DNA from: an uncultured Methylomirabilota bacterium
GTDB taxonomy: Bacteria > Methylomirabilota > Methylomirabilia > Methylomirabilales > 2-02-FULL-66-22
NCBI GenBank assembly: GCA_963705305.1
Contig: OY970067.1
Span: 1,664,001-1,728,000 of the forward strand
Direction of reading: 5' to 3'
Length of the DNA stretch: 64,000 bases
The translations under genes were made by a program, and so were the position numbers. Under the pieces are notes generated by a model. It searched no databases and was not told the origin of the DNA. It saw only the letters and a list, made by a program, of their open reading frames with translations. Shown one piece after another: positions 8,772 to 52,808 of the stretch (within the stretch, counting starts at the first letter, position 1; each line of letters starts with the position of its first letter).

Positions 8772-8775
8772 GCGT

Positions 8776-22131: not shown

Positions 22132-22589
22132 CGCATTATTCACATGTGTCCTCATCGAAGACCCGACCTTTTCAGGCCCCAGGATGATGGGCTCGACTGT
22201 CCGCCTTGGAGTGCACCGCACCCGGGAAGTCGAGCTGCCCGCCCACGCTTTTTAGCTTCCACCTCGTCTGCCGACGAAGTGACGCCTAACACAAAAGCAT
22301 GAACTCCTTTTACCTGGTCCCAGGCCGCCATCTATTGAGGGCCCTCCCAGTTTCGCGCGAAAAGCCGAAGATGTAAACACTGAGGTGCGGCATGTATCGC
22401 TTACAAGCTCGTTGTTGTTAGTACGGGCAGTAGAAAGTGAACTTAAGTGGCATCTCCACGTGTGCGTACGCACCGGTGATCATTCAGTGCTTTCACCCTC
22501 TCGCACTCGGCGTACACGCGACACGCTCTAAGGCGAAAACGCGACAAAATGATATTGCCGATTGCGACCGAGCTCGATGAGGTTGGCAC

Positions 22590-23504
22590 CTAACTGGTCT
22601 TGGTAAGGCGCTTCTTCACCTCCACCCCGGCTAGTTGTTCGAGGACCTTGGCCACGGCCGAGTCATCCTCACGCGCCAGTCCTGCCACCATACCCGCCTG
22701 GTAGGCCATGTAGGCCATAGGGGCCAGTAGTAGCGGTGTCTTTGTGTCACGCGCTGCCTCCAGCACGATCCCCATGTCTTTGTGCAGGATTTCGAGTGCG
22801 CCGCGATTGGTGAAATCTCGCGCCATCAGGCGATCCACCCGGTTGCGAAAGGCCCATGAGTCACCGGTGCCGTGGCTGATCACCTCATATACGAGCTCGG
22901 GGTCTAATCCCAACTTCGCTGCTAGCACCATCGCCTCGGAGGCGGCGACCTCGTGGATACTCATCAGCATCTGGTTGATCATTTTCAGCGCTTGGCCAGA
23001 GCCCACCTCCTCGCCAGCGTAGTAGAGGTGCTTGCCCATCGTCTCCAGGACCGGACGCGCCGCCTCGATTGCCTCCGGTGGACCGCTCAGCATCAAAGTC
23101 AGTGTTCCGTCCTTAGCGCGGAGCCAGCCCCCGCTCACGGGCGAGTCAACATAACGCGCCCCTGTCGGCACTACCAGGGAGGCCAGATGCCTAGCCTGGG
23201 CGGGCGAGATAGTACTCATCCCGATCACGGTCTTGCCAGGACCCAGCCCCCCCAGGGCGCCCTCCTCACCCGCCAATACCGTCTCCGCCTGTAAGTGATT
23301 TAGAACCATCATCACCAACACGTCGCTCTTGGCTGCTGCCTCCCGCGAGGACGACGCCACATCAGCTCCGGCCGTCGCTAGCTCTGCCATGGGTTCTGGG
23401 CGGAGGTCGTAGACCAATAGCGGTAACCCCGCCCTGCGCACGCTCAAAGCCATCCACTTGCCGATAGCTCCCAGTCCAATGAAACCGACCTTTGGTTGAC
23501 CCAT
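22590..23504 (-). CDS. NAD(P)-dependent beta-hydroxyacid dehydrogenase (3-hydroxyisobutyrate/L-threonate dehydrogenase family)
   Basis: Motifs GFIGLGAIG, DSPVSGG, GSGQALKMINQ and KDM. Confidence 0.9.
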   Translation of the reverse strand: MGQPKVGFIGLGAIGKWMALSVRRAGLPLLVYDLRPEPMAELATAGADVASSSREAAAKSDVLVMMVLNHLQAETVLAGEEGALGGLGPGKTVIGMSTISPAQARHLASLVVPTGARYVDSPVSGGWLRAKDGTLTLMLSGPPEAIEAARPVLETMGKHLYYAGEEVGSGQALKMINQMLMSIHEVAASEAMVLAAKLGLDPELVYEVISHGTGDSWAFRNRVDRLMARDFTNRGALEILHKDMGIVLEAARDTKTPLLLAPMAYMAYQAGMVAGLAREDDSAVAKVLEQLAGVEVKKRLTKTS

Positions 23505-23972
23505 AGAATGCCCCTTCTCATATAGTCGTACCAGTCCGGTAGTCGAACTTTTCCGATCTCGAGTCAAACCGTGCCTTGATTACCGCTCCGATGAAAAGTG
23601 AGCTCCATCAATGGCTACGCCTCGCCACTGACCGTGCCGATGCCCTCACCGGACACCAGTGCCCGCAAAAATACTACTTCTTGAAGCGGACGATTGTATA
23701 TCCATCGTCCGGTATTACTAGTCCTAACTTTGGTAATGAATTCAGTATCCTACCGGCCCACGTCTACACGCACTGGACCTCGTCGAAAACCAGCCAGCTT
23801 TGCTCCAAAACCTCCGCTCCACACAGGACAGGGTGCAGCGTGGAGTCGGTAATCATCCATGCTTCCGGACCTCGGGGGCTGCGACAACTGAACTCGGCTG
23901 GCTCACACGTCCAAGGCGCTTGACGTACTCGAGCTGTCCCGGGATTTGCGCGTCGATTTCCAGCTCAAGGCG

Positions 23973-24837
23973 CTACCCTGGAAAATGACATGCCGCCAGG
24001 ACCTCACGAACCTCGCCGTCGGTTAAGCGAACGTAATCATGGGCCATGACTTCAGCCAGCATGGCCGAAGTCCAGAACGTCGTAACCTGGGGTGGCGTCG
24101 AATATCCATTTCTCCAACGCCGGCTCTATAATCACATTTGGGATAAAACGCCAACCGATGTCCCAAACCACTTCTGGCGACTCACACATAAAGACCAATT
24201 TGCCCTGATATTTCCCTTGTACGAGATAGACGTTCGGACAGGTATAGTATACTTTCCAGCCCAGGTTAGCTAGTGCTAACTCGGCGTGACGCTGGATCAC
24301 GTCGGGATGGACGGATGTATGGACGTTGATATGCGTGTGTCCCGTTGTAGGCTTGACTGGAAAGTCTAGACCCTTGCGAAAGTGATCGGACCTGAAGTAT
24401 GCTTCGACTGCTTTCTCCTCAGCTGGCCCTGGGGCCCGGAAAGGAAATTGTCGACAGAACTGATTGATGTACCAGCGATTCCAGATGAGCAGATTGCAAC
24501 CCGACTCGCCCCCCTCACAGGCACGAAGGCCAACGTCGGCCTTGAAAAACCACTGATAGTCGAAGTGCGGCTTCCCCTTCGGCTCCACGCCATGGAGGCT
24601 GCCCATTCCGGCTTTAGGAGACATATGGTCTATCTTCCGTGAAGACGGCCAACCCATCCGATCAAAGTAGCCACACATGATCCGCTCGAGTGAATCAGGA
24701 TGGATTGACGTATCGACATAGGTGTGGATATGCGTCCCCGTTGGATCGGGATCCTGTAGCGCGGCACAAATCCTGCGCCAGTGATCCGACGATGCAAAAT
24801 ATTCCTTTGCCTCATTGAGGATAGCCTGCCTGTTCAT
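23973..24837 (-). CDS. Uncharacterised tandem-HxH protein, paralogue X1 (one-base frameshift near the 3' end)
   Basis: Clear homology to three other ORFs in this window. Removing one base at 24075-24081 restores the family C-terminus WTSAMLAEVMAHDYVRLTDGEV. GAAAGGGG upstream. Confidence 0.85.
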
Positions 24838-24953
24838 GTGTGCCCCCTTTCAATAACCATAGACATTGCGGAACTGACAAGAGATGCTGTCACGTAAGTC
24901 ACGTCTCACCACCAAGAGTTACTTAACCCTCGAAAACGCCAAACGCAGACCCT

Positions 24954-28308: not shown

Positions 28309-28923
28309 TCACAGTTGCCTTCGGTGGCCGCCATGACCTCTTCGGATGTCGGGAGTCCTGCCTTTCTTGGCGGGGACGCCTTCTGCCTTCGCTTTCACAG
28401 CCTCCTGGACAGCGTTCTGGATGGCGGCAGGCGTCAGGCCGCAGCGCGCTTTGATCTCCTCGGCCGTCCCGGACTCGCCGAACACAGCCCTTACTCCGAT
28501 TCTCTTTGTCTGGACAGGACATTTCTCGGAGATCAATTCCGCGACGGCACCGCCCAGTCCACCCAGAATGTTGCCATCTTCGACCGTCACAAGAGCCCCC
28601 GTTTCTTGGGCGGCCGACACCACAGCCTTTTCATCCAGGGGCTTGATCGTGTGTAGGTCCAGCACCCGTGCACCGATCCCACGGGCCTCGAGCATCCCTG
28701 CTGCCAGGATGGCGTTATGGACGAAGATGCCTGTTGCCAAAATCGCCACGTCCGCTCCCTCACGGTTGCGACTAATCACTCCAAGCCTCGCCCCGGGACT
28801 CATCGTCAGCTCGCCGCGCAGGACGCGCGGTTCGCCGTTTGCCGCAACAGAGCTAACCTCGATAGTGTGCCCCACATTGATCGCAATCAGCAACCGGTCG
28901 ATTCCACTTCGGTCTGAACTCAT
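28309..28923 (-). pseudogene. Transketolase C-terminal domain fragment with an unrelated (possibly PfkB-like) N-terminus
   Basis: REGADVAILATG, LHTIKPLD, GGLGGAVAE and FGESG are present; the pyrimidine-binding domain is missing. Confidence 0.75.
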
Positions 28924-29013: not shown

Positions 29014-29913
29014 TCATTGTTTACGTGTCAAAGTCTTTTGCGTCTCCCTTACCCTCCTGAAGTCGCGATATAGCAGTGTAAAGTCACTGTCCTTCATTCC
29101 ACAGTCGACCGCTGCCTTAAGAAAAGCGAGCGTCTCCCTTCCATATGTGGCATCTGCGCTCACGCGATCGGCCAATGATACAGCCATAGAAAGATCTTTG
29201 TAGAGATTATATACACGCGATCTGCCATCCCACTGTTTCGAAAGAATGTGGCGCGGGAAGCGAACTTGGCTGATATAGCTCCTTGCATTCCCGTGGTTGA
29301 AGACGGTAATGACATCCTTAACATCGATTCGACACCTTTTGGCTATATTGCACCCTTCACACGTGACTAGGAAAATTGTATGGCATACCAGGTTATGAAT
29401 GAGTTTCATAGTGTGACCAGCTCCGCTGTTACCTAGGAAGAAAATGTTGCTAGCAAAGGGAGCTAGGAATTTGCGCGTACGACGAAACGCACTCAATTTT
29501 CCTCCGACCATCAACGTGAGGGTTCCTTCTTTAGCAGCCTGAGCCCCTCCGCTCATTCCGACATCGAAATATTCGACACCCCGCCTAGCCGTCATTCGAG
29601 CCAGTCGACGGGAATTCAACGGATCCGATGTCGTCATATCGTACAGGACGAGCTGGTGATGAGCATTGGCGAGAATCCCGTCTTCTCCAATTAACATTCG
29701 TTCAATCTCAGCGCCCCCCGGGACCACAAGAAACACCGCTCCACAACGATACGCCATCTGAGACGGCGTTGATATCGTAACCCCTGGTTTCTGCCGCCAT
29801 ACCTTCAGGGCTCGTTGGGCAATGTCCCACACCTCAATCTCATAGCCAGCTCTCCGGAGGTTCTGAGCGATGCCTCGACCCATATTCCCCACTCCAACAA
29901 CCCCTAGCCTCAT
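29014..29913 (-). CDS. NAD(P)-dependent beta-hydroxyacid dehydrogenase
   Basis: Motifs GVVGVGNMG, DVGMSGG, GAGHTMKLIHN and KDL. Confidence 0.88.
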   Translation of the reverse strand: MRLGVVGVGNMGRGIAQNLRRAGYEIEVWDIAQRALKVWRQKPGVTISTPSQMAYRCGAVFLVVPGGAEIERMLIGEDGILANAHHQLVLYDMTTSDPLNSRRLARMTARRGVEYFDVGMSGGAQAAKEGTLTLMVGGKLSAFRRTRKFLAPFASNIFFLGNSGAGHTMKLIHNLVCHTIFLVTCEGCNIAKRCRIDVKDVITVFNHGNARSYISQVRFPRHILSKQWDGRSRVYNLYKDLSMAVSLADRVSADATYGRETLAFLKAAVDCGMKDSDFTLLYRDFRRVRETQKTLTRKQ

Positions 29914-30258
29914 GGACCCCACGAGTCACCCCCCGAGCGAATCACGGCATGGCAGCAAGTCTGCTGCTCATCTTCGGAGATGTTAGCCTCGCCCATGCCA
30001 AGATCGAGCCCCGCGTAGGTGCAAACACGAATAGGAGGCAATCCCTCAAGGCGTAACCACGATTTCCCAATGATGGGCAATACCACACACTCACGAAATA
30101 TTGGACGAAGAGAGGGTGCCCATCTGATTTGCTCTGGCTGGAAATGGGATGTCGTCGGTACCGCTGACCGGACAAACCATGCAGGTTCGCCACTGGCGAA
30201 GGGAGGAATCTGGGCCGGGCGAAGTATTTCGGAAACAAAGGACTTCTGCTGGTGAAGC

Positions 30259-36000: not shown

Positions 36001-36891
36001 TTAGCGTGAAAAACTTGCCCATTCTTCGACGAGCTTGACGACCGCTGAGGCATCCTCACGCCCCAAGCCTTTGGATTGCGCAATGAGGTTGATCTGCTGC
36101 GCTGCTGCCCCGAGGATGAGGGGAACCCCCAACCGCTGGCTCGTCTCGAGCACAACGTTCATGTCTTTTATCTGAATGTCGAGCGCCCCTCGGGTCGTGA
36201 AGTCGCGATTGATGATCAAGGGGAGCTTGTCGCGCCACACCCATGAATCTCCCGCACTGTTTTTGATCGCCTCATGAACCAAGGACAGGTCCAAGCCAGA
36301 CTTCTCGGCGAGGACTACGGCCTCGGCCATCACAATGAAGCCGACTGTGACGAGGAGCTGATTGATCATTTTGACGGTCTGCCCATCACCGAGGTTCTTC
36401 CCGCAGAAGTACACGTTCCTCGCCACGGCCCGTAAGATGGGACGCGCAGCCTCGAAGACTTGCGGGTCGCCTCCTAACATCAGAGTGAGGTTCCCGCTTT
36501 GGGCACCCCGAACGCCACCGCTCATCGGGGAATCCAGCACCCGCACATCTCGAGGTACTGCGGCTTGTCCAACACCCTGAACCTCTCCGGGGGAAATCGT
36601 GGAACAGATGGACAAGGTTGTGCCTGCTTGCATGCCTGCCAAGACGCCATTTGCGCCCAATATCGCCTCTTGGATCTGGGGAAAATTAAGGAGGACCGAG
36701 AAGATAAAACTGCTCTTAGAGCCAAGGTCGCGAGGCGAGGCGGCCGCGTGCGCCCCCTCGGCAACAAGCGCTTGAACGGGCTCCGGCCTGACGTCGTAAA
36801 CCCAAACCTCATGACCTCCCTTGATCGAGTTACGCGCAATACCGGAACCCATAGATCCCAATCCAATTACCCCCACACTTGCTTTCATCAT
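36001..36891 (-). CDS. NAD(P)-dependent beta-hydroxyacid dehydrogenase
   Basis: Motifs GVIGLGSMG, DSPMSGG, KMINQ and KDM; paralogous to 22590-23504. Confidence 0.9.
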   Translation of the reverse strand: MMKASVGVIGLGSMGSGIARNSIKGGHEVWVYDVRPEPVQALVAEGAHAAASPRDLGSKSSFIFSVLLNFPQIQEAILGANGVLAGMQAGTTLSICSTISPGEVQGVGQAAVPRDVRVLDSPMSGGVRGAQSGNLTLMLGGDPQVFEAARPILRAVARNVYFCGKNLGDGQTVKMINQLLVTVGFIVMAEAVVLAEKSGLDLSLVHEAIKNSAGDSWVWRDKLPLIINRDFTTRGALDIQIKDMNVVLETSQRLGVPLILGAAAQQINLIAQSKGLGREDASAVVKLVEEWASFSR

Positions 36892-36904: not shown

Positions 36905-37835
36905 CTACTTACGGCCCATACTTTCGGACTGGACTGATGCTCGCCAAGGCTGCAGCTGTTTGAGAATGCGTCGTGCCTTCCTCCGGAATCCCTGCGAGAC
37001 CGGCATCGCCGGACGTTCTGGGTGGTCCGGCAGGAAGACCTGTCAGTTCAAGGCAGGCCTTTATTGTCCCGGGGAAGGGACCTGTTCGGAACAGGATGTC
37101 GAACGGCTCTAATACCTTGTGGAGGCGCTCGATTTCTGCACGCTTCCCCTGGCGGGCCGCTTCGTACAAGGCAATGAATTCCCGTGGGGCCACATTCGCG
37201 GTCGCGAGAACAGCCCCGCGTGCACCGAGTTGTACTGCCGCGGCAAAATCCAGTTGACCAGCGGGTAGGTAACGGAAGGCCCCTCCCTGAAGCGGTACAC
37301 ATGCTTTCGCGAGCCGAAGGTTTCCGGTCCCATCGAAGATCCCGGCAAAGCGATTCGACATGCGCGCAAGCCGCTTGACCGTCTTCACGTCCAGCGCCAC
37401 ACCGCCCGCACGGGCGGGATTGTTGTACGCGTACACCGGGCAGCGCACGCCGCGGATGATCGCCCGATAGTGCTGATACAGTTCCTCTGTCGAGGGCTTC
37501 AGGTAGTAGGGCGTGATCAGACCTAATCCATCCACGCCCTCTGTTTCCGCCTCTTGGGAGATGTGAAGTGTCTCTTTGGTGGAGACAGTCCCGGAATTGA
37601 CAATGACTGGCACGCGACCTGACACTGCCCTCACGCCAGCGCGGGCGATGCGCCGCCGCTCCTCCCGCGTCAGCGAGAAGAACTCCCCCTGGCTAGCAAG
37701 CAGGTATACCCCGTGCACCCCAGCCCTCAGGAGAAACTCGATGAGTTCCCGGAGTGCACCGAGATCAGGCTCCTGGGTCGGATTCATGGGAGTGACGGTC
37801 GCGACCACGATGCCGTGTAGATCTTTCACGTACAT
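36905..37835 (-). CDS. DapA/DHDPS-family aldolase (KDG-aldolase-like); one-base frameshift near the 3' end
   Basis: VTP, GEFFSLTREER, ITPYY and YNNP motifs. The usual Schiff-base 'GIKD' reads 'GIFD'. Removing one base at 37012-37018 gives the family-like tail GPPRRPAMPVS. Confidence 0.8.
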
Positions 37836-37854: not shown

Positions 37855-38697
37855 CTATCCGTCTGATTGTCTGCGGAACAACTTTCTAAAGGCCAATCCT
37901 TGCTCCATACAATACTTGTATATGACTTCTACATCCCAGCCTATGCAGAAGTGCTTTACCCCCATTCGCAAGTAGCAATCCGCTCCCTTGCATTCACCGA
38001 GTTCGACTCGGGGAGTAACCCCCATGGCAAGCGCTGTCTCGATGGTGTAGCGCTCAGCTTCCCTAACCCTTGGGTGATTCCATTGCCCGGGAATTCCAAT
38101 GCTCATAGAATAGTCAGCAGGGCCAAACTGGACCATATCTATCCCAGGAACCGCAAGGATGTCTTTAAGCCGCTCTATGGCAGACTCTTTCTCGATCATA
38201 ATACCAATGACACTATCTTGAAGCTGATCCACATACACCTCTGAGCCTGGGGACATTACATACCCGACATCTCTCCTCATTCCTGCCCCATTCCTGCCAC
38301 CACCGACTGGTGATTCGGACCGTACGGCAGCAACACACTGCATTGCATCCTCAACCGTCCGGACATCAGGAAATAGAATATTCTGAATTCCAGAACCAAG
38401 CGCCCGGCTCGCAATGTATGCTCTCGGCTCTTCTTCAACTTTCATCATTGACGACATGTGAGCAAATAAATCTACGGCACGCCCAAAATTCTCCAATGAG
38501 GAGAGATCGTAAGGGGCGTATTCACCCACAAATTCGATATAATCGATGACCCCAGTTTGGCCAATAACCTCCACTAGGCCCGGCCATATCGCATGGACGT
38601 GTGTCCCCAAGCTCGGTTTCCCATCCTTCAAGAGTTCCCTGAGAATGTTTTTTCGCTTGGGCCTCTTTCGATCGTTCATCGGCTGCATTTCTTTCAT
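37855..38697 (-). CDS. HpcH/HpaI-family class II aldolase
   Basis: Motifs GIMIEK, VPGIDMVQFGPADYSMSIG and IGWD. Confidence 0.85.
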   Translation of the reverse strand: MKEMQPMNDRKRPKRKNILRELLKDGKPSLGTHVHAIWPGLVEVIGQTGVIDYIEFVGEYAPYDLSSLENFGRAVDLFAHMSSMMKVEEEPRAYIASRALGSGIQNILFPDVRTVEDAMQCVAAVRSESPVGGGRNGAGMRRDVGYVMSPGSEVYVDQLQDSVIGIMIEKESAIERLKDILAVPGIDMVQFGPADYSMSIGIPGQWNHPRVREAERYTIETALAMGVTPRVELGECKGADCYLRMGVKHFCIGWDVEVIYKYCMEQGLAFRKLFRRQSDG

Positions 38698-39044
38698 ATG
38701 ATTTGCTTCCTTAATCACTTAACCCGGCGATAGCGGACACCCCCATCTTCAAGTCAAGCAGGGCGGGCGACAAGGGCGCCAAAACATAGGGGACGCTTAG
38801 GTGGCATCCGGCCAGCGGAGTGGCGCCTTCGAGCCGGTTCTTCGGCTCGGCGAGCCAGTCCCGTCGACCTCGAGTCGACGTAACCGTGGGATCCGTGCTG
38901 TATGTCCACCGGAGGACTCGACAGCGATCACAGGGCTAACCCCTCAGCTTGCGGCGGAGGGTCGTTGGGATTCCGCCCGCCGCAGTGTAAGTACATTCGA
39001 TGCATTAGTATTTGAAAGGGTCGCCGCCCTAATTCTATCTCATT

Positions 39045-39914
39045 TTAGAAAGAACTGAGAATCTGGGTTGTCTCCTTCTCGGTCAGCGTGACGAATTCAT
39101 GCTTGGACAGCGTATTTTGCAGCATGGCCTGCGTCCATATGTCGAAATCTGGTCGGGCGGGCAGGTCGAACCAGTCTTCGGCAGGCTGTAGTACAACATT
39201 AGGATTGTACTGCCAGGCGATGTCCCAAACCTCCTCTGGGTGTGCCATGAGGAAGATGATTTTCCCTTGATAGCCTTTCTTCATGTGATAGACGCATGGG
39301 ACATAGTGGCCCACCTGCCATCCTATCTTCTTCATCTCTTCGATCGTAAACAAAGCAAAGACTTCGGGGTCGATGCTCAGTTCGTAATTGCCATGCACAT
39401 GGGTGACCCCGCTCACGCGTGGATCTTCAACTAGGTACAGCAGTTCCTTCCAATGTTTGCTAACAAAATACTGTTGAATGATCCGGCGCTCCTTCGGGCC
39501 GACGCACTTGAACTCGAACTGCTTTAGGTAAGTATCCATATAGCCTTTCCCCCACCAGATCAGATTCTTCCCCTCCTCGCCTTCGGCCGGGGGCATTGGC
39601 TTGAGTGCGATCCCCTCCTTGAAGGTGCCGAACATGTCAAAACCAGGCTGAGGGCCGAAGGGGTGCACGCTGTGCAGGCCGGACAAGCCGGGGCGAGGGG
39701 ATGTTAGGTCGATTTTCCGATCGATGGGCAGGCCCTGTTTTTTGAGGTTCGCCGCCACAATCGGGCTAAGGCTGTTCAGGTCAATCGCATTGTTGACAAA
39801 GATGTGGATGTGATAGACCTCCTCCGATGGATGGCGGTATAAATCCAACAACGCATTCCACTGATCGGATTTAAAATAGTCCATCACCTCGCCGACGATC
39901 TGTGCCCGATTCAT
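39045..39914 (-). CDS. Uncharacterised tandem-HxH protein, paralogue X2 (most divergent)
   Basis: YFKSDQW..HIH..RKID..LH..FD and YFVSKHW..HVH..YQGKII..VWD; AAAGGAG RBS. Confidence 0.88.
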   Translation of the reverse strand: MNRAQIVGEVMDYFKSDQWNALLDLYRHPSEEVYHIHIFVNNAIDLNSLSPIVAANLKKQGLPIDRKIDLTSPRPGLSGLHSVHPFGPQPGFDMFGTFKEGIALKPMPPAEGEEGKNLIWWGKGYMDTYLKQFEFKCVGPKERRIIQQYFVSKHWKELLYLVEDPRVSGVTHVHGNYELSIDPEVFALFTIEEMKKIGWQVGHYVPCVYHMKKGYQGKIIFLMAHPEEVWDIAWQYNPNVVLQPAEDWFDLPARPDFDIWTQAMLQNTLSKHEFVTLTEKETTQILSSF

Positions 39915-39939
39915 TGTAGTCTCCTTTTTCATTGCCAAG

Positions 39940-40968
39940 TCACGACAACCTCACCGCCTCGCCTGTCTTGGATCCGTCGTAGATTGCCAACGCAATCCGG
40001 AGAGCCTCGATGCCATCCCGAACGTCGGGGCTGAGCGGCTCCCCTGCAGCCACGGAGCTGATGAAGTGCGAGAGCGCGCCATGGTACCCGTTCAGGACGT
40101 ACGTCTGCCATTCCCGAAAGCTCACATGCGTGGATTGCGGCTCCAGATACTCGGCCGGGGTGGGCTCCTCAAGCATATCTTGCGTCTGACCAATCCGGCG
40201 GGAAGATTTCGGGGGTTTCCACCAGTGGAATATCCGACTGTTGTCCACCACGATAACGTTGTTGTTCCCCACAAGCTCCACCCGCTCTCCGCCAGTGTAC
40301 CAGACACTTAGGCTATTGATATTGTAGGCGCCAACCGCCCCGCTCGCGAACGAGAGCGTGACCGCGAAGGCCACTTGGCCAGCTCGGATTTCGTAGGCCC
40401 GCGTGATGACTTCTCGGACCTCCCCCATGAAGAAGCGGCCTAAATCGAACAAGTGCACGGCGCCGACGGTCAACTGGTCGAGCGTTGACGGCCGGTGACC
40501 ACCGACAAATTTGGCGTCCAGCATCGAGGTGCCGCCGAACTCCGGGAGCATCGAGATGGTCTTGGCTCGCTGATACAACGGGTTGAACCGCTTGTTGAAT
40601 CCGACCATGACCTGCTTCCCTGTCCGCGCCACGGTCTCCGCAATCCGCTCGGCTTCCGCAAGGGTCGTGGCGAGCGGTTTTTCGCTGTAGACATCCAAAC
40701 CAGCCTCGAGGCAGGCCATGGTGAGTTTCGGCTGCACGGTGGGAACGGATAACACGACGGCAGCATCTGCCCGCTCCTTCTTGAGCATCTGCTCCACATC
40801 CGTGTAATGCGGAACATTTCCGAAGCCCCGGGCAGCGCGCTGCGCACGCTCCGAATCGAGATCACAGCATGCAACCACTTCCGCGTCCTCAATCTCCCGG
40901 ATAGAAGGATGGAGTATGATGCTTGCGTGCTTTCCACACCCGACGAGCACCACACGGACTGGTTTCAT
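39940..40968 (-). CDS. Gfo/Idh/MocA-family oxidoreductase
   Basis: Motifs VGCG, SEKPLA, MVGFNKRF and HLFD. Confidence 0.92.
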   Translation of the reverse strand: MKPVRVVLVGCGKHASIILHPSIREIEDAEVVACCDLDSERAQRAARGFGNVPHYTDVEQMLKKERADAAVVLSVPTVQPKLTMACLEAGLDVYSEKPLATTLAEAERIAETVARTGKQVMVGFNKRFNPLYQRAKTISMLPEFGGTSMLDAKFVGGHRPSTLDQLTVGAVHLFDLGRFFMGEVREVITRAYEIRAGQVAFAVTLSFASGAVGAYNINSLSVWYTGGERVELVGNNNVIVVDNSRIFHWWKPPKSSRRIGQTQDMLEEPTPAEYLEPQSTHVSFREWQTYVLNGYHGALSHFISSVAAGEPLSPDVRDGIEALRIALAIYDGSKTGEAVRLS

Positions 40969-40969
40969 A

Positions 40970-41821
40970 TCAGAACCCCTCCTGGGCTTTCCCAAAAGCG
41001 TGACGCGAAATCTCTTCAAAGAAGTGTCGGCTCTCCCTTGCCACATCTTCAGGCTCACCCGCATACCCGAATGCATTCGCCTCATATTCGATCGAAAGAA
41101 AGTCGTCGAATCCAACCTCCCTCAGCGCACGCAAGACGTCGATGAAATCAATAGACCCTTGCCCAAGCGGGGGGAAGGCATATTTGTCAGGGGTCCCGAC
41201 GGCGTCCTTCAGGTGGACATGCACAATAGATGTGCCCAGATCCCGGATTGCGCGGCCAGGATCGTCGCCATGAACTTGGAGGTGGCTCGGGTCGAGATTC
41301 ACCTTGAGCCGGCAATCCCCGAGCTCCGCCTGGAGCCGTCGCATCGATTTAGAGTCGCAGACCATCATATTGACCACTGGTTCGAGTGCAAAGGTGACAC
41401 CTCGGATTGCTGCGTGCTCAAGACAGTCATGGATCCCAGCTAGCAGCCAATCCCAGGCAGTTTCAGCAGGCAGACCTTGGGGAGGGGAGCCCGTAAGGCC
41501 ATGGACCACGGGTACCTCGAGGTCACAGGCGAGGTCGATACACCCTTTGACAAACGCCCTCGCGTCCTGGCGCGCGGGTGCCTCTATCGAGAGAAAACTA
41601 ATGTGAGCCGCAATCGAGGAAACAGGAAGAGCGTGACGGTGGAGCAACTGCCGAAGGTGGTCTCTTTCTTGCCGTGTTAGCCCAGGTGTGACGTGGGGTG
41701 CGGCCCACGGAAGGGTCTCGGCATTCAACTCGATTCCATCGTAGCCTAGTTCGGAAAGTCGGGGAATAACCCTGTCAAGCGCACTTTGATGGAACGCTAC
41801 GCTATTGAACGCGAGCCGCAT
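40970..41821 (-). CDS. Sugar phosphate isomerase/epimerase-family TIM-barrel protein
   Basis: Metal-ligand motifs GYDGIE, ALEP, NLDPSH, HVHLKD and SIEYE. Confidence 0.9.
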   Translation of the reverse strand: MRLAFNSVAFHQSALDRVIPRLSELGYDGIELNAETLPWAAPHVTPGLTRQERDHLRQLLHRHALPVSSIAAHISFLSIEAPARQDARAFVKGCIDLACDLEVPVVHGLTGSPPQGLPAETAWDWLLAGIHDCLEHAAIRGVTFALEPVVNMMVCDSKSMRRLQAELGDCRLKVNLDPSHLQVHGDDPGRAIRDLGTSIVHVHLKDAVGTPDKYAFPPLGQGSIDFIDVLRALREVGFDDFLSIEYEANAFGYAGEPEDVARESRHFFEEISRHAFGKAQEGF

Positions 41822-41921
41822 TCCGATTTCTCCTGTAAATACCTTAGGGAGAAATACCGCCGCCCCGCGAAACCAACCTCCAGCCCGGCACATCAGTGCC
41901 GGGCTGGAGAGTTCGAGTGGT

Positions 41922-42797
41922 TTACCGAGGTTTGTGCTTGGCCACGCATCCATCCAAGACAGATTTGACGTCGGCTTCATCCAATTTGACGTAGGGATGT
42001 GCCTTTAATTCCTCCTCCACCATCTCCCAGGTCAGCCAATCATATCCGATGGGTGTCGGGAAGTTCCAGGGCTCTTCAGCCGGCTTGATGGTTACATTCG
42101 GGTTGAACAGCCACCCGATGTCGTACACGGCTTCCGGCTTCTTGCCTAGGAACACCAGCTTCCCTGTGTACTCCCCCTTCGCTTTGAAAACGTTTGGGCA
42201 GACATAGAAGACCTCCCAGCCCCTGCTGTTGAGGGCTGGAACTGCATGGCGTCGGATGTCTTCAGGATGTATGGAGGTCTCAATGTTGAAATGAAAGTGC
42301 CGGGTATTGGGCCGCTTGACATACTCAAGACCCTTCTCCCAGTGTTCCGATTTGAAGTACTGCTCAAGTGCTTTCTCGTCTGCCGCCGTGGCCCGTCGGA
42401 ACGGATAGTTCTTATAAAACGTCTCAATGTACCACCGGTTCCATCCTAGGAGATTGTTGCCGCCTTCGCCTCCCTCCATCGGCTTGATGGCAACATCTTT
42501 ATTGTAGACCCAGAATATGTCGAAATGCGGCTTCCCTTTCGGCTCGATTCCGTGCAGCGAGCCCATGCCTTTTTTGGGCGTCAACCAATCAATCAATCGA
42601 TCGCTGGGCCACCCGACAATCTCAAAGAATCCCTCGACAATTTTCTGCAGCGAGGTCGGGTGAATCGATGTTTCCATGTACAGGTGCACATGGGAATTTC
42701 GGGGATCTGGATCTTGCAGCATCATCAGCAAGCGCATCCACTGGTCCGAGGACCGAAAATAATCAGTCAACTCTTGCACCATCGCCTCTTGTTTCAT
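41922..42797 (-). CDS. Uncharacterised tandem-HxH protein, paralogue X3 (first gene of the left-arm operon)
   Basis: YFRSSDQW..HVH..TSIHP..MGSLHGIEPKGKPHFD and YFKSEHW..HFH..TSIHP..GKLVF..VYDIGW. Confidence 0.88.
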   Translation of the reverse strand: MKQEAMVQELTDYFRSSDQWMRLLMMLQDPDPRNSHVHLYMETSIHPTSLQKIVEGFFEIVGWPSDRLIDWLTPKKGMGSLHGIEPKGKPHFDIFWVYNKDVAIKPMEGGEGGNNLLGWNRWYIETFYKNYPFRRATAADEKALEQYFKSEHWEKGLEYVKRPNTRHFHFNIETSIHPEDIRRHAVPALNSRGWEVFYVCPNVFKAKGEYTGKLVFLGKKPEAVYDIGWLFNPNVTIKPAEEPWNFPTPIGYDWLTWEMVEEELKAHPYVKLDEADVKSVLDGCVAKHKPR

Positions 42798-43412: not shown

Positions 43413-44132
43413 TCATTCTTGCTTATTCAGGAATTCAGTGAAATAGATGGCGATCCCTGTGTCGCCACGTTCGACTGCGCCCCTCAGGAGCTCAACAAGT
43501 CTATGGTGCCTCTCCATCATCAAACGTCGAGCGGCTTCTTTGTCTCTGCATTCAATCGCCCGTATCAATTCCTCGTGTCCTTTCTGATCGTCACTCCAGA
43601 AGTCGAGGGATCGTGCATCACCAATGAAACGGTAGCGATTCAAACTATTAAAGATACCCATCACGGCCCGTGTGAGGATAGGCCAATGAACCGATTGCAC
43701 AAGCCGCTCATGGAGACAATAATGGTGTTTCGCGTAGGACTCCCAGTCACGCTCCTCGAGGGATTGCCTCATTTGCGTGACAAGTCCTTTTAGTGTACAT
43801 ATATCGTCGTTCGTAATATGATCCAGAAGCCTATCCAAACACGCCTGTTCCAAAGTTGAGCGGATGAAGACGTACTGTTCTAACTCTTGCAGGGAGAGCA
43901 TAGCCACCTGCGAGGGTTGACGAGTCTTGGAGACGATAAGCCCTGCTGCCTCGAGCCTGAGGAAGGCTTCGCGCACTGGAGTGATACTTACGCCGATTTG
44001 GGCGGCCACTGCGGCCTCGGTGATTCGCTCTCCAGGTTTGATCTCTCCTTTGAGAATGAGATCCCGCAGGATCTGGAACACTTCATCGGATATTGAGTTG
44101 CGATTCTGGATCTTAGGTAATGTTAAGCCCAT
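43413..44132 (-). CDS. GntR-family regulator (FCD domain)
   Basis: wHTH GVSITPVREAF; paralogous to 46218-46937. Confidence 0.92.
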   Translation of the reverse strand: MGLTLPKIQNRNSISDEVFQILRDLILKGEIKPGERITEAAVAAQIGVSITPVREAFLRLEAAGLIVSKTRQPSQVAMLSLQELEQYVFIRSTLEQACLDRLLDHITNDDICTLKGLVTQMRQSLEERDWESYAKHHYCLHERLVQSVHWPILTRAVMGIFNSLNRYRFIGDARSLDFWSDDQKGHEELIRAIECRDKEAARRLMMERHHRLVELLRGAVERGDTGIAIYFTEFLNKQE

Positions 44133-45122
44133 TCTTTTCCTTCCGTAATTAGGACTCTGCATCAGATGGTCGATCACTTTGCCGAGAACCCTCTACCTTC
44201 TTTCTCAGGGACCGGATCGGTTGCTAGACGCCCCAGCTCAACCCTTTATTCTGGCCGCGGTCACTTGTTCATTCAAATGTCCCTTAAACAGAGGGTCCTG
44301 CCTTTTTAGTCGACCAACTCGTCTGTGCCGTATCTATCAAAAATAGCGCCGAAAGCCCTTGGCCAAATAGGTCCACATTGAAGGAGAAGCGAGACGGTGA
44401 ATCCAGAGTCAGCCGTGGCGAGCCTGCACAAGTAGGCATTTGGCTTGGATCGAAACGGAAAACCAGCCGGGAAGCCTTGGCTCTCGAATAGCCGCTCCAA
44501 CCCCCAGTTTTTAATGCGTTGTTCCCGTGGAACCTCTTCTCGGCTCCCTAGGGTCTGTCTGGGGCCATCGGATTCCAGGCACAGAAAGCTAAGATGCAAG
44601 ACATTTCTAATCATTTTAATGGCAATGTTTGGTCGCATACAGATAGTCACGCCACTGTCGATTTGCATATATCACTAATAACATCCGTTTTAGTTAATAG
44701 ACAAACTACCTTATACTTTAAACCTTTTATATCAAATGTATCACGATGAGTCCATTTGTCAATAGCAGTTTGTCAAAATCCAAGAGAGTTCCATCATTCT
44801 CCTCAGTTGATCTTTCGGCTGCTCTGCAAGTACTGGCAAATGTTGGACATCTCGGTTACGCCTTTTCTAAGATTCGAACATGTCAAGTTAACATGGAAAA
44901 ACGAGGGACCGCTCTGCTACCGGCAAATGGAAAATGGGACTGTCTGTTCGCGTAGTTCCATGTCGCGAGCACAGCTCTATGCTAGATTCGGCGGATCATC
45001 GCAGTCTCTGACGGTCCCGCTGAGGTAAGCTCCCCCCCTCTCGTGCGTCTAAGGCCACCTTCGGCCATCGTTTTTACCTTCACGGTGCCACTTCTCCCCT
45101 TCCGTGAAGTTAAGTGGCCGCA

Positions 45123-47289: not shown

Positions 47290-48202
47290 ACCAGCTGGAG
47301 ATGAGCCGGACCCAGGTCTTGGACCGGCCCCTGTGCGGGCGGGAGTTCTTCGAGGAGGTCCTCCGGGACCAGTTGGAATTGGGTCGGCCCAGCCGGCTGC
47401 AACTCCACTTCGACTGGAAGATCACCCGGGCCACCCCCGGCCGCTTCCGCACCCGGATCATCACCGACGGTGTCGTGCGCAGCCTACACGTCGAGCGCAC
47501 GCGCTGCCACATCACGCAGTCCTGCAAGGAGGGGCCCGCCCTGCGCACCGAGACCCCCGTCAACGACGCCTACGACTTCGGGGTCAAGAGGGGTCCGAGC
47601 AACTTTTCCTACCTCCGGACGCTCGGGCAGCGCATCAACGGCCGCCTGCGCACCGCGGAGCGGTTGGCCCACGACTGCGGCCTCGCGGAGCTGCAACTCG
47701 CGGCGCTCATCCTGCCTAGCCGGACGCCCGACGGGCAGCCGATCCCCGGTCTGAAGTTCGGCCAGCCGCGGGTCATGGCCCCCCCCGCCGCCTGCTGCCT
47801 CTGCGGCCTCACCCCGGCGGGCATCACCAATAACCGGGTGCTCCATCCACAAATCGCCCAGCTACTCGGCGTGCCGGACGCCGACTACACCGCCCGCCAG
47901 ATGGGCTACGATCTCCGGCGCCTGTTCCGCAAAGGCCTCATTGTCCGGGTAGACGGCAAGCTTTGCTATACGCTCATGCCGCACGGTCGGCGTCTAGCCT
48001 TGTTCCCGACCAAGCTCTACGCGCGAGTCCCGCGGCTCGGGTTCCAGGCGCTCGACCGCCGGATTGCGTCCCAGGCACCGCCCCCGCTCCGAACGGCTCT
48101 CGCTGCGGTCGATGTGGCCACGGAGCAACTGCTCCAGGAGGCCCGACTGCAGCGTAGATACTCTGACATGTTTGTGCAGAATATGGCCCTACAAGACAGC
48201 TA
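47290..48202 (+). pseudogene. Degenerate C-terminal part of an unclassified putative transposase
   Basis: High-GC block with GREFFEEVLRDQL.LGRP, KEG.ALRTET..ND..DFG and a C-terminal wHTH (QMGYDLRRL.RKGLI.R). The N-terminal part of the tracked ORF looks unrelated. Confidence 0.6.
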
Positions 48203-48294
48203 ATTCATCAGTTGCGGACAACGTAGGCGTGGCAATAGAAATGGGAAGACGAGGCCAAACCAACACCCGGCAGACGGCGGAAAGGACTGAGGGA

Positions 48295-49047
48295 ATGCAG
48301 CTAACAGGAAAGGTCGCCTTGGTGACGGGGGCTAGCAGAGGGATTGGTCGGGCGATTGCGGTGGCCCTGGCCAAAGAAGGTGCTGACGTGGCGGTGAACT
48401 ACGTGAGAAACGCTGTTGCCGCCGAGGAGACCGCTGCATTAGTGGAAGCCGTGGGACGGCGCTCCTTGCTCGTTCAGACCGATGTGACCCGACGCCAAGA
48501 GATTGAGGCGATGGTGAAGCAAGTGCTCCAGCACTTCGGCCGCATTGACATTCTCGTGTGCAACGCGGGCGTGCTCACGCGTACGCCTTTCCTTGAACTG
48601 ACCGACCAAGAATGGGAGAAGGTCCTTACCACCAATCTGACCGGCCCTTTCTTTGTGGGGCAAACTGTCGCCAAGCAGATGGTAAAGCAGGGCGGAGGGA
48701 AGATCATAAATGTGACATCAGAAGTCGCCGAACGCGCACAGCCGAACCGCAGTCACTACTGCGCCTCCAAAGGTGGGCTGCGCCAACTCACCAGGGCAAT
48801 GGCCATCGAACTGGCGCCTTATGGCATCAACGTCAACGCGGTGGCGCCTGGCACAACTGAGACAGATATTAATCGAGACAGCCTGAGGCTCCCTGAAGAG
48901 CGAAAACAACGCCTGACACGAGTGCCGATCGGAAGGTTCAGCCTGCCGGAAGACGTCGCGACGGCGGTAGTGTTCTTGGCGTCCTCCGGATCCGACACAA
49001 TGGTGGGGGCAACCGTGGCCGTGGATGGTGGCTCGACCGTGACCTAG
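48295..49047 (+). CDS. SDR-family oxidoreductase
   Basis: Motifs TGASRGIG, CNAG, YCASK, VAPG and VDGG. Confidence 0.92.
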   Translation: MQLTGKVALVTGASRGIGRAIAVALAKEGADVAVNYVRNAVAAEETAALVEAVGRRSLLVQTDVTRRQEIEAMVKQVLQHFGRIDILVCNAGVLTRTPFLELTDQEWEKVLTTNLTGPFFVGQTVAKQMVKQGGGKIINVTSEVAERAQPNRSHYCASKGGLRQLTRAMAIELAPYGINVNAVAPGTTETDINRDSLRLPEERKQRLTRVPIGRFSLPEDVATAVVFLASSGSDTMVGATVAVDGGSTVT

Positions 49048-49086
49048 GAAGCTTCGATTCCACCCGGCTTAACGAAGAGGGGGGCT

Positions 49087-50088
49087 ATGAGGCAACCGAA
49101 GGCCGGCTTCATCGGACTGGGTGTCTTCGGAGAGTGAATGGCCTTGAGCGTGCAGCGGGCGGGCTGGCCGCTGGCGGTCTACGACCTTCGCCCGGAGCCC
49201 CTGACGGAAACTGGCGGCGGCCGGGGCGCGAGTGGCGTCCTCCTCACGGGAGGCAGCGGCTAAAAGTGACATGCCGGTGATCATGGTCTTGAACCACCCG
49301 CAGGCGGAGGCTGTGCTAGCGGGCGAGAAAGGCGCTCGTGGGAAGCTTGGCCCTGGCAAGACGGGGGTCGGGATGAGTCCTATCTCCCCCGCCCAGGCTA
49401 GGGGCAGTTGGCCTCTTTCGTATCGCGCACCGGGGCGCGCTATGCGTACTCGCCCGTGAGGGACGACTGGCTCCGCGCCAAGGACGGCACGCTGACGCTG
49501 ATGCTGGGCGGCCCACCGGAGGCAGTCGAGGCGGCGCGCCCGGTCTTGGAGTCGCTGGGCAAGCACCTCTACTACGCGGGCGGAGAGGTGGGGTCCGGGC
49601 AAGCGCTAAAGATGATCAACCAGATGCTGATGAGCGTCCACGATGTCGCCGCCTCCCAGGCGGTGGTGCTGGCCACGAAGCTGCGCTTGGACCCCGAACT
49701 TGTCTACGAGGTGATCAGCCACGGCACGGGCGACTCGTGGGCCTTCCGCAACCGGGTGGACCACCTGATGGCGCGCGACTTCACCAACCGCGGGATGCTC
49801 GAAATCTTGCACAAAGACCTAGGAATCTTGCTGGAGACAGCGCGCGATACCAAGACGCCCCTACTGCTCACCCCTACGGCCTACCTGGCCTACCAGGCGG
49901 GCATGGTGACTGAACTGGCGCGCGAGGACGACTCGGCGGTGGCCAAGGTCCTCGAGCACCTGGCCGGGGTGGAGGTGAAGAAGCGTCCCGCCAACCACGC
50001 ATTGGTGCGGGCCTCCCCGACCCCTGCCGCTCTCGGGGGAAGGGCGCAGTCGGCGGCCTCGCGGAAGAGGAAAGCCGGGAGGCGCTGA
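49087..50088 (+). pseudogene. Beta-hydroxyacid dehydrogenase pseudogene, close copy of 22590-23504
   Basis: In-frame TGA at 49135 replaces Trp; frameshifts near 49210 and 49400; DSPVSGG decayed to YSPVRDD; the remainder is nearly identical in protein sequence. Confidence 0.9.
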
Positions 50089-50353: not shown

Positions 50354-51225
50354 ATGGAAACAAAGGCCGTTGTCGATGGACTGATCTACTACTTTAAGGG
50401 CGACCATTGGCGCCGGCTTATGGCCCCCTGATGCAAGACCCAGACCCCCACGGCACGCATATTCATGCTTACACGGAAACTTGCGTGCATCCGGAAGACA
50501 TAAAGCAGATCCTCTGCGCATACCTAGAGGCTAAGGGGGTACCTAGTTCTCGCAAGATTAACTACACTGCGCCACGGCCAGGCGAGATGGGCTCGTTGCA
50601 TGGCATCGAACCCAAGGGGAAGGCTCACCTTGACTACAACTGGTACTTCAACCCCAAGGTAGCCTTGGCAGCGACGGAGGACGGCGCGAAACGCGAAAGT
50701 GACTGCAACCTCTGCGTGTGGAACCGCTCCTACATTCGCGAATTTTACAGTGATTTCCACTTCCGCCCGTCCATTGGGCCGGCCGAGGAGGACGCCCTTT
50801 GTGAGTACTTCCGTTCGGACCACTGGCACAAGGGGCTGGAGCTCTCAATAGCTCCGAACACTACCCACGGGCATATCAACGTTTACACCAGCGTGCATCC
50901 CGACGTGATCCAAAAGTTCGCCGAGGAATCGATCAGGCAGAAGGGCTGGGAGATCTTCTACACCTGTCCCAACGTCTACCTAGTCGAGGGGAAATACACC
51001 GGCAAACTGGTCTTCATGGGTAAGAAACCTGAGGCCGTCTACGACCTGGGCTGGATGCTGCGGCCCGAGACGGTCATCGAGCCGGCGTGGGACCAATGGG
51101 CGCTGCCCAGCAACCCTGGCTACGATCTCTGGGTTTGGCCCATGATGCAGCCCATCATGGAGTTCCCCTACGTCAAGCTGACCGATTCAGAAATCAAGAC
51201 AGTCGTCTCAGGTATAACCGACTAA
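50354..51225 (+). CDS. Uncharacterised tandem-HxH protein, paralogue X4 (frameshift in the C-run near the 5' end)
   Basis: AAGGAGG then ATG 50354 gives METKAVVDGLIYYFKGDHWRRLMA. The frame shifts at 50424-50428 into MQDPDPHGTHIH. Closest to X1. Confidence 0.85.
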
Positions 51226-51490: not shown

Positions 51491-52808
51491 ATGAAGAGCA
51501 AGAGGCGAATGACAAGACAAGTATCGAGGCGGGCGTTCCTCAAGGGATCTGTGGGAACAGCGGCCTTGGGGTTGGCGCTTAGCGCCAGTTCTGCGCCGAT
51601 CGCCCGGGTTGCATCCGCCCAAGCTAAGCCCAAACTCACCATGGTCGTGCGCGGCTTTTTCGGTCCCAACACCAACGACATATTCAAGGCGCAAGCAGAG
51701 GGCTGGGGCAAGGCAAATAACGTCGATGTCACCTGCGACATCATTTCGATGAATGACATCCCAGCCAAGCTGGCCGCCGCTGCCGAGGCGGGTGCCGGGC
51801 CGGACGTGATCCATCTGTTCGATGGCACACCTCACATGTATGCCGAGAAGTTGGCAGATGTTAGCGACGTGGCCGCGACCATCGAGAAAGAGGAGGGCGG
51901 CTTCTACGGTCTCGCCAAGGACGTTCTGCATGGTCGACGGCGTCTGGCGGGCGGTGCCCCACACAGGGACAACTGAAGTCCTCTGCACCCGAAGTGATGT
52001 CTTCAACCAGCTTGGGCTGCAAGTTCCCGATTCCTGGGATGAATTGCTCGAGGTGGGCAAGAAGCTGCGCCAGAACAAGTGGGTTGTGGGCTGGCCAATC
52101 GCCCACGCCGCGGGCGACGGCGGTAGCTTCATGTACAGCATTTTCTGGTCCTATGGAGCTAGGGAGTTCGAGAAGGACAACAAGACGCTCGCTGTGGATA
52201 GCCCAGAAACAATTAAGTGTCTTCGGATGATCAAGCGGTTGTATGACGAAGCATTTGATCCTGCGTGTACCTCCTGGGATGATTCCTCGAATAATCGGCT
52301 CTGGCTTGCCGGCCAGATGGCCCTTACCGGCAACAGCCCCAGCATCTGGGCTGCGGCCTTCCAGGATGCGCCGCAGCTGGTGCCGGTCACCAAACACAGC
52401 ATCTTACCCAAGGGGCCCGGCGGTAGGCACTTAAAAACGGAGACTCAGGAGTTTGGCCTCCTCAAATATTCCAAAGTGCAGGCTGAGGCCAAAGCGCTCA
52501 TGAAGTACCTTATGTCGGGGCCACAGTATAGCAAGTGGATCAGCGCAACCCTTGGCGATCGGATGGGCATGACCAAGAACATGGCCGGTTTGGAGCTGTG
52601 GAAAAAGCCGAACCTCAAACCAAGCTTGGATTCGATGGCTTTCGGACACGTGAATGGTTGGCCCAGTCCAGTCAATCGGACGTCCGCGGAGGCGTACAAC
52701 AATTTTACCTTGATTGATATGGCCACGATGGTCGTTAAGGGCAGCACACCCGAAGAAGCTGTGAAATGGGCCGTCGGCCAGTACAAGAAAATAATTATGA
52801 CGTCATAG
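51491..52808 (+). CDS. Carbohydrate ABC substrate-binding protein, Tat-exported (single frameshift)
   Basis: SRRAFLK motif. Two tracked ORFs join if one base is removed at 51920-51926 (AKDVCMVDG, matching AKQVCIVGG in the 34616 paralogue). Confidence 0.88.

Follow-up and report, generated by a model that had tools for sequence, protein, structure and literature searches.

An unnamed two-repeat protein family from a Methylomirabilota bacterium with a predicted fold like that of vicinal oxygen chelate proteins and a candidate His/Asp metal site

The vicinal oxygen chelate (VOC) superfamily, which includes glyoxalase I, methylmalonyl-CoA epimerase, FosA/FosX, ArsI, the extradiol dioxygenases, and the pair 4-hydroxyphenylpyruvate dioxygenase (HPPD) and hydroxymandelate synthase (HMS), is built from paired β-α-β-β-β modules that arose by duplication. 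VOC enzymes carry four metal ligands, one on the first and one on the last (fourth) strand of each module. A protein with a similar predicted plan is encoded by X3, a gene at positions 41922..42797 on the minus strand of a 64,000-nucleotide window of DNA from an uncultured Methylomirabilota bacterium (assembly GCA_963705305.1, contig OY970067.1, positions 1,664,001 to 1,728,000); all coordinates given here are those of the window. X3 is an open reading frame (ORF) from ATG to TAA with 291 codons plus stop, and it belongs to an unnamed two-repeat family referred to here as the X family. The predicted structure and the gene context point, with a probability of roughly 0.55, to X3 being a cytoplasmic VOC-like enzyme that uses a divalent metal, does not need O2, and acts on a hydroxy- or oxo-carboxylate.

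Residue numbers refer to the 291-residue protein. The longest ORF opens at GTG 42830, 33 bases upstream of the ATG, and would give 302 residues. The ATG was taken as the start because the consensus of the homologues begins there, and numbering in the longer ORF is higher by 11 (H47/H49, H178/H180, L92-H93, G223-K224, D104, D237).

A preliminary description of this gene had proposed an internal tandem duplication with an HxH motif in each half, and the two halves do align significantly with one another. Smith-Waterman comparison of the N- and C-terminal halves of X3 gave a score of 120 against a shuffled mean of 29.5 (standard deviation 4.8), a z-score of 19.0. The three paralogues in the window gave z-scores of 11.4 (X1), 8.0 (X4), and 6.5 (X2), and for each of the four proteins all 1000 shuffles scored lower than the real sequence. 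HHalign of the halves, based on a 47-sequence family alignment, returned a probability of 99.0% with an E-value of 4e-18 over 93 columns at 32% identity. The repeat motif strings quoted in that description are all present in the X3 translation. As it had stated, the four-way paralogue alignment shows no variation in either HxH motif, in the L-H His, in the G-K Lys, or in the Asp of each repeat. When 60 half-units from the window and 27 related loci were aligned, the only invariant columns were the two His residues of HxH. Second halves in this set are 39–63% identical to the reference and first halves 18–32%. Every second half resembles the other second halves more than it does any first half, which indicates that the duplication predates the radiation of the family. 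No repeat remains at the DNA level, and the duplication is therefore ancient.

The pseudo-two-fold architecture anticipated by the same description is reproduced in the AlphaFold2 model of X3, in which an α-α-β-α-β-β-β unit occurs twice and the two halves are homologous. The model, built with the family alignment, has a mean predicted local distance difference test score (pLDDT) of 95.6 and a predicted template modelling score of 0.90. Each half consists of two helices, the β-α-β-β-β element, and then one or two short strands, and extra helices form the C-terminus of the protein. The presence of β-α-β-β-β in both halves matches the two-module feature of VOC proteins. Repeat unit 1 covers residues 8–112 (42462..42776, minus strand) and was delimited from the model together with the homology of the halves; repeat unit 2 covers residues 142–243 (42069..42374, minus strand) and has a pLDDT of 92.7 when folded alone. 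In unit 1, strand 1 spans residues 36–43 with H36 and H38 at its start, followed by a helix (47–60), strand 2 (70–75), strand 3 (78–84, containing H82), and strand 4 (91–98, with H91 and D93 near its start). The equivalent elements of unit 2 are strand 1 at 165–174 (H167 and H169), the helix at 178–190, strand 2 at 195–206, strand 3 at 209–220 (K213), and strand 4 at 224–231, where D226 lies near the start. Residues two apart on a strand share a side, so the HxH pair of each unit would face one way, and the strand geometry suggests the same for the H91/D93 pair.

The model bears directly on whether X3 is a bicupin, in which the HxH...E of each half would be cupin motif 1. This motif has the form G(x)5HxH(x)3-4E(x)6G, which the HxH of X3 with a Glu three residues on resembles, and a duplicated unit of ~130 residues with an HxH is of a suitable size. 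However, X3 is predicted to be an α+β protein with a helix between strands 1 and 2 and two helices before each unit, and no jelly roll is present. The Glu after HxH also varies among the four paralogues (E/D/E/N and E/H/Y/E), none of 59 diverse family members matches a cupin Pfam profile at E <= 10, and no cupin structure appears among the listed Foldseek matches. A bicupin is thus assigned next to no probability.

Foldseek comparison with the PDB leads instead to VOC proteins. Of the 41 rows listed for the whole model, 27 are VOC by protein name, three are clearly unrelated, and the rest are structural-genomics or antibiotic-binding entries. The VOC rows are named as glyoxalase family proteins, methylmalonyl-CoA epimerase, FosA, C-As lyase, HPPD/HMS, and extradiol dioxygenases. 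A search with a single repeat unit listed 43 rows, 25 of them VOC, with 62–74 columns aligned, a best E-value of 8.3e-3, and probabilities of up to 0.97. The best VOC case in this search was HMS (7yvv), at a probability of 0.97 and a root mean square deviation of 3.6 Å over 64 columns. VOC is the closest known fold and its module type fits the model, making the X family a candidate member for which sequence profiles return nothing and structural comparison returns weak matches. The X protein probably descends from the VOC superfamily.

The residues that would form an active site were assessed in 98 full-length family members, and all of their codons lie on the minus strand. HxH motif 1 (42684..42692), at the start of strand 1 in unit 1, is conserved as H36 in 91/98 and H38 in 91/98 members, with a further five carrying Glu at position 38. 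R67 (42597..42599) is also found in 91/98 and is a candidate carboxylate-binding residue. The His of L-H on strand 3 of unit 1, H82 (42552..42554), is His in 70 and Tyr in 15 members. In the H91-F-D93 segment at the start of strand 4 in unit 1 (42519..42527), H91 is conserved in 78/98 and position 93, the distal Asp of repeat 1, is acidic in 88/98 (68 Asp, 20 Glu). In unit 2, HxH motif 2 on strand 1 (42291..42299) is close to universal, with H167 in 98/98 and H169 in 97/98. The Lys of G-K on strand 3, K213 (42159..42161), is present in 89 members, and D226 on strand 4 (42120..42122), the distal Asp of repeat 2, is acidic in all 98 (77 Asp, 21 Glu). P178 (98/98) and W119 (91/98) are likewise conserved. 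The symmetry is imperfect, as the HxH of the second half and the acid at 226 are near-universal and the HxH of the first half is found in 91/98.

These positions do not vary independently. The pseudo-symmetric acids at 93 and 226 co-vary, with D/D in 68 members, E/E in 15, E/D in five, and D/E in none. A subgroup of five members has altered H36, H38 (to Glu), R67, H82, D93, and K213 jointly and retains H167, H169, and an acid at 226. The pattern is suggestive of residues lining a single site with a core of H167/H169 and D/E226. A His/Asp metal site at the repeat interface, as the preliminary description had also supposed, is plausible on the predicted structure. Separately, a subtype of at least 9 of the 98 members carries the changes H82 to Tyr, D93 to Glu, E111 to Arg, and D226 to Glu together, which may mark a different metal or substrate.

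This conservation also concerns the question of whether X3 catalyses a reaction at all. The top whole-model Foldseek match is UcmS2 (6cky_B) and TnmS2 is also listed, as would suit a non-catalytic VOC-type binder of small molecules, like the bleomycin-resistance proteins or the TnmS/UcmS proteins that bind enediynes, or a sensor domain. A universal His/His/acid set accompanied by Lys and Arg is, however, unexpected for sequestration of a hydrophobic ligand. X genes lie within catabolic rows of transporters and dehydrogenases and not in biosynthetic or resistance clusters, and in this one window four diverged paralogues go with separate sets of transporters and dehydrogenases. A binding role is accordingly highly improbable.

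For the metal-enzyme reading, the two β-α-β-β-β cores of one chain would pack with pseudo-two-fold symmetry, like paired VOC modules, and one divalent metal (Fe, Mn, Ni, Co, or Zn) would be held in the cleft between the units. Its ligands would be the strand-1 His and strand-4 Asp of each unit, with H167/H169 and D226 as the core and H38 and D93 in addition. A hydroxy- or oxo-carboxylate substrate would chelate this metal through two neighbouring oxygens, while H36, H82, H91, K213, and R67 could serve in carboxylate binding and proton transfer. The route may proceed through a metal-stabilised enolate or enediolate to isomerisation or epimerisation, to β-elimination (dehydration), or to decarboxylation of a β-keto acid. 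Of these, β-elimination to a 2-oxo acid would fit both main gene contexts, as aldolases or 2-oxoacid oxidoreductases are found near X in both.

The context of X in other genomes was surveyed at 35 loci from species-representative genomes of Thermodesulfobacteriota ('delta-proteobacteria'), Dehalococcoidia, Poribacteria, Latescibacterota, Gemmatimonadaceae, Methylomirabilales, and Nitrospinota. Neighbours were counted by tblastn of representatives and named from Pfam and NCBIfam. A Cupin_2 protein of ~120 residues lies directly upstream of X on the same strand in 21/35 loci, with a gap of 0–341 nt. A short-chain dehydrogenase/reductase (SDR) is directly upstream in seven (gap 3–84 nt), and a LarA-like nickel-pincer isomerase is directly downstream in eight (67–169 nt). 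The latter falls in NCBIfam group 22, with 482 bits where the cutoff is 400; the passages searched in PMC11770544 hold nothing on LarA 'group 22' or its context. A tripartite ATP-independent periplasmic (TRAP) transporter is encoded within 4 kb upstream in 14 loci, and all four of these neighbours are missing in six. A count made on the gene maps places enzymes acting on 2-hydroxy or 2-oxo acids (LarA-like isomerase, D-2-hydroxyacid dehydrogenase, GlcD/GlcF-like proteins, Ldh_2, and 2-oxoacid:ferredoxin oxidoreductase) near X in 16/35 loci. The preliminary description had called the protein compatible with an isomerase, mutarotase, hydratase, or hydrolase, any of which is possible, and the gene context points to hydroxy- and oxo-acid chemistry.

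The fullest arrangement is found in metagenome-assembled genomes (MAGs) of sulfate reducers and syntrophs (loci L006, L013, L014, L017, L024, and L025; positions ~1–10000 of each). It comprises a D-2-hydroxyacid dehydrogenase, a three-subunit 2-oxoacid:ferredoxin oxidoreductase, an HpaB-like protein, a BaiCD-like Fe-S flavoenzyme, the TRAP transporter genes DctPQM, the cupin, X, and the LarA-like isomerase. A metallo-β-lactamase-fold protein and two genes resembling Asp/Glu racemase or arylmalonate decarboxylase often follow this row. The poribacterial row runs from an HpcH aldolase through an SDR and X to a formamidase-like gene, two PhyH genes, and two Ldh_2 genes. The operon-like row of Sinorhizobium meliloti (L036, 8767–14325) holds an NMT1/SsuA-family binding protein, an ATP-binding cassette (ABC) ATPase, a permease, X, a PCC/DUF296 protein, and a D-2-hydroxyacid dehydrogenase, and an RraA-like aldolase and a Mutator-family transposase lie nearby. 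In one metagenomic protein (P0077, 299 residues) an X that lacks its N-terminal portion is fused to the C-terminus of an RraA-like aldolase/decarboxylase; this chimera is probably frameshift read-through between neighbouring genes and adds a pyruvate-aldolase-type neighbour of X.

These contexts weigh on the role of O2. The X protein could be an O2-dependent non-haem iron oxygenase in which a 2-His-1-carboxylate triad (for instance H38 or H167/H169 with D226) holds the iron, as in the VOC-fold enzymes HPPD, HMS, HglS/DUF1338, and the extradiol dioxygenases, perhaps converting a 2-oxo to a 2-hydroxy acid. HglS and HMS yield 2-hydroxy acids, and HPPD, HMS, catechol 2,3-dioxygenase, YdcJ (2rjb), and 3lho are all among the Foldseek neighbours. 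The universal H167/H169 with an acid at 226 resembles a facial triad, and 2-hydroxyacid dehydrogenases and racemase-like genes lie downstream of X. However, the X protein has no sequence match to any oxygenase family, and 21 of the 35 loci are cupin-type clusters in Thermodesulfobacteriota MAGs with 2-oxoacid:ferredoxin oxidoreductase and the BaiCD-like flavoenzyme. These hosts and enzymes are anaerobic. Host labels across the family include Desulfobacterales, Syntrophobacter, Syntrophaceae, and Dehalococcoidia, which we take to be strict anaerobes. As many hosts are anaerobes and the loci hold oxygen-sensitive enzymes, a need for O2 is not expected, and an oxygenase is distinctly unlikely.

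The SDR-linked loci are where a metal-dependent hydrolase would fit, such as a sugar-lactone lactonase acting after the neighbouring sugar or alcohol dehydrogenase, with a fold that is only superficially VOC-like through convergence. Besides the seven loci with an SDR directly upstream, SDRs lie near X1 and X4, and a scan of 52 window ORFs turned up no family of lactonases or sugar-acid dehydratases. Metallohydrolases commonly have His-rich sites with Lys and Asp. The Foldseek scores are below significance, and sheets resembling those of OpcA and biliverdin reductase were listed too. Against this, the majority context has a TRAP transporter and no sugar dehydrogenase before X, and VOC proteins dominate both structure searches. 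TRAP transporters take up carboxylates. A hydrolase is therefore considered unlikely.

Two further candidates were set aside. Dihydrophloroglucinol cyclohydrolase was ruled out as the SDR-linked X, as that enzyme belongs to the 'cyclase'/isatin-hydrolase family according to passages of PMC10470551. Sulfonate catabolism (sulfoquinovose, sulfolactate) as a common theme is retained as a lead only, with every hint below threshold: the S. meliloti SsuA-family binding protein scores 95 bits against a cutoff of 163.5, Ldh_2 scores 180 bits against a 500-bit L-sulfolactate dehydrogenase model, and 3-hydroxyisobutyrate dehydrogenase (HIBADH)-type paralogues score 116–164 bits against a 348-bit sulfolactaldehyde reductase model.

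Several observations weigh against reading X3 as a VOC-like metal enzyme. The whole-model Foldseek search gave a best E-value of 2.2e-3, with none at or below 1e-3, and probabilities of up to 0.75. The corresponding TM-scores are low, at 0.21 or less when normalised to the query and 0.34 or less when normalised to the target. The top match of the single unit is OpcA (9emm_E) and not a VOC protein, and 12 of its 43 rows are non-VOC (OpcA, nine of polymerase mu, a hydrogenlyase subunit, and biliverdin reductase). At sequence level, none of the 59 diverse members matches glyoxalase/VOC, cupin, or any recurrent Pfam family at E <= 10. PDB sequences searched with three profiles (whole family, repeat unit, and diverse family) gave chance matches only (RNA polymerase beta, 1rfz, and nsp10), and a protein-language look-alike search of the ESM Atlas gave no usable match. 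The co-variation at the candidate site represents few evolutionary events. Finally, neighbour sets vary by lineage, so the substrate may not be the same in all, and the HIBADH, TIM-barrel, and GFO/IDH/MocA neighbours of the window are not conserved beside X in other genomes.

The family is rare and unnamed. X3 matches no Pfam family at E <= 1, X3 and its paralogues together yield a single chance match in Pfam, and NCBIfam gives them nothing beyond one chance hit. The commonest Pfam match among the 59 diverse members is DUF4298, in eight of them at a best E-value of 0.009. Each of the 46 clusters retrieved by a word-index search is unnamed or 'hypothetical' and lacks a precomputed Pfam domain, and an exhaustive profile search of 1.84 billion representative proteins found 121 representatives at E <= 1e-3 and 63 at E <= 1e-30. 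No fused longer forms were seen among proteins of 511–2000 residues, which is weak evidence. Short representatives of 100–190 residues resemble fragments or internal-deletion variants and not clear single-repeat ancestors. No VOC Pfam domain was found in 83 small ORFs scanned, a subset of 115 ORFs of 105–185 residues from the loci and the window. The open-access literature, which cannot be searched by sequence, yielded no published description of the family. A term search of a 2026 review (PMC12890257) met no mention of a glyoxalase-like protein or one of unknown function, and passages of a paper on L-threonate and C4–C6 sugar acids (PMC12994016) describe no X-like protein.

Members come from eight or more named taxonomic groups, which include sulfate reducers, sponge symbionts, and a single rhizobium. 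The rhizobial homologue, on plasmid NZ_CP146207.1 of S. meliloti MABNR56 (988534–989358), is 37% identical over 95% coverage and keeps all of the key residues. It was the only match in a collection of 72,556 plasmid records and appears to be strain-specific.

A tblastn search of the window with X3 identified exactly three further copies, the next match having an E-value of 1.3. X1 (24052–24837, minus strand) is 54% identical to X3, X4 (50407–51225, plus strand) is 47.5% identical, and X2 (39045–39938, minus strand) is 35% identical, intact, and shares its strand and gene row with X3. The tblastn alignments themselves cover 24073–24849 (X1), 50428–51213 (X4), and 39051–39941 (X2); the X4 gene is placed at 50354–51225 with its out-of-frame start included, and the X2 gene at 39045–39914. 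In X1 a single additional base (region 24040–24090) shifts the C-terminal helix into a different frame. The first ~25 residues of X4 lie in another frame from ATG 50354 (region 50354–50430), with the break within a run of five C. Both frameshifts fall outside the motif regions, a caveat that applies to two of the four paralogues, and they are either recent pseudogenisation events or assembly indel errors. The four window copies are not monophyletic in the family tree. X1 shares 82% identity with a copy from a Methylomirabilales MAG, X3 clusters with homologues from Nitrospinota and Dehalococcoidia, and X2 sits on a very long branch. They are old paralogues, presumably with differing specificities.

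X3 and X2 belong to a row of genes on one strand, consisting of a GntR regulator, X3, a xylose-isomerase-like TIM barrel, a GFO/IDH/MocA oxidoreductase, X2, an HpcH aldolase, a dihydrodipicolinate synthase (DHDPS)-type aldolase, a HIBADH-type dehydrogenase, a sugar ABC transporter, and an IolD-like thiamine diphosphate enzyme. By Pfam, the GntR/FCD regulator upstream of X3 lies at 43413..44177 (minus strand), and the two genes between X3 and X2 are the TIM barrel (ORF 40970–41980, minus strand; likely start 41821 by eye) and the GFO/IDH/MocA oxidoreductase (ORF 39940–41115, minus strand; likely start 40968 by eye). NCBIfam matches of these two to IolO and IolG are below threshold. Downstream of X2, Pfam and NCBIfam identify the HpcH/HpaI-type aldolase (37855–38718) and the DHDPS-family aldolase (36909–37835), both on the minus strand. 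A G+C-rich hairpin (41877..41910, minus strand) with a 15-bp stem, 11 G-C pairs, and a 4-nt loop lies 12 nt past the X3 stop and precedes the TIM-barrel gene. It has no second copy in the window and may be a terminator or an intercistronic stabiliser.

Beside both X1 and X4 lie an SDR, a sugar-binding protein, and a HIBADH-type gene; one neighbouring SDR is at 48064–49047. The window holds four HIBADH-type paralogues (21367–23567, 29014–29922, 36001–36891, and 49408–50088), three of them close to an X paralogue and that at 29014–29922 at the far end of the X2/X3 row. Their best NCBIfam model is L-threonate dehydrogenase, to which they score at most 286 bits where the cutoff is 350. The island looks like a set of repeated transporter-dehydrogenase-X modules. 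Some genes near the paralogues appear broken or shortened: the HIBADH-type gene at 49042–50088 has its N-terminus in another frame and an in-frame stop, the ORF at 28309–28923 holds the transketolase C-terminal domain only, and the sugar-binding protein at 51822–52808 has 328 residues against 425–446 in its paralogues. Two IS3-type transposase genes with helix-turn-helix and rve integrase-core domains lie in the first 14 kb (6309–7427, plus strand; 12302–13486, minus strand). The transposases and broken genes suggest a decaying or rearranging catabolic island.

A more specific proposal is that the X proteins form a new class of metal-dependent carbon-acid enzymes on a VOC-like two-repeat scaffold, filling an unassigned step in hydroxy-acid catabolism, most attractively by β-elimination, as a 2,3-dihydroxy-acid dehydratase or a lyase with another β-leaving group. 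In aerobes the 2-oxo-acid product would pass to pyruvate-type aldolases (HpcH, DHDPS, and RraA-like), and in sulfate reducers 2-oxoacid:ferredoxin oxidoreductase would take it up. Different substrates would then fall to the four diverged window paralogues, and X2 and X3 might stand in for a lactonase and a dehydratase, which are missing from the sugar operon of the window. We offer this as tentative, a possibility on the doubtful side.

The X family has a confident predicted structure, a candidate active site, and a catabolic context, yet is nameless in Pfam, NCBIfam, and the PDB. If it is a VOC-type enzyme, the superfamily would gain a new single-chain tandem architecture whose ligand set is HxH/Asp. 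Should X instead prove to be the dehydratase, lactonase, isomerase, or decarboxylase for a missing step, the annotation of sugar-acid and hydroxy-acid pathways would change in many uncultured lineages. Because S. meliloti can be cultured, its copy is accessible to genetic work.

Compared with known systems, X is most like the VOC superfamily, as the candidate ligands lie on strands 1 and 4 of each unit, the positions used by VOC enzymes. It differs in the two extra helices that precede each module and the extra helices at its C-terminus. X has an HxH pair on strand 1 where VOC proteins usually have a single His or Glu, an Asp on strand 4 where they usually have Glu, and a conserved Lys and Arg. 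It also lacks any sequence or profile match to VOC Pfam models or PDB chains, and its structural scores are below significance. The DUF1338/HglS/YdcJ proteins offer a second comparison, being VOC-like in fold with added decorations, as large as X or larger, and converting a 2-oxo acid to a 2-hydroxy acid. By query-normalised TM-score their structures 2rjb and 3lho rank highest in the whole-model search (0.20 and 0.21), and both are weak matches (E 0.012–0.013, probability 0.16–0.21). However, X has no Pfam match to this family's profile, and HglS depends on O2, which anaerobes, as many X hosts are, live without. The acid-sugar dehydratases of the enolase superfamily and of the IlvD/Edd type are unrelated to X in fold and sequence and provide a functional analogy only. 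In that analogy, suggested by the gene context, a metal on the carboxylate and α-oxygen of the substrate, with Lys and His as bases, would lead through an enolate to a 2-oxo-acid product for the aldolases and 2-oxoacid oxidoreductases found near X.

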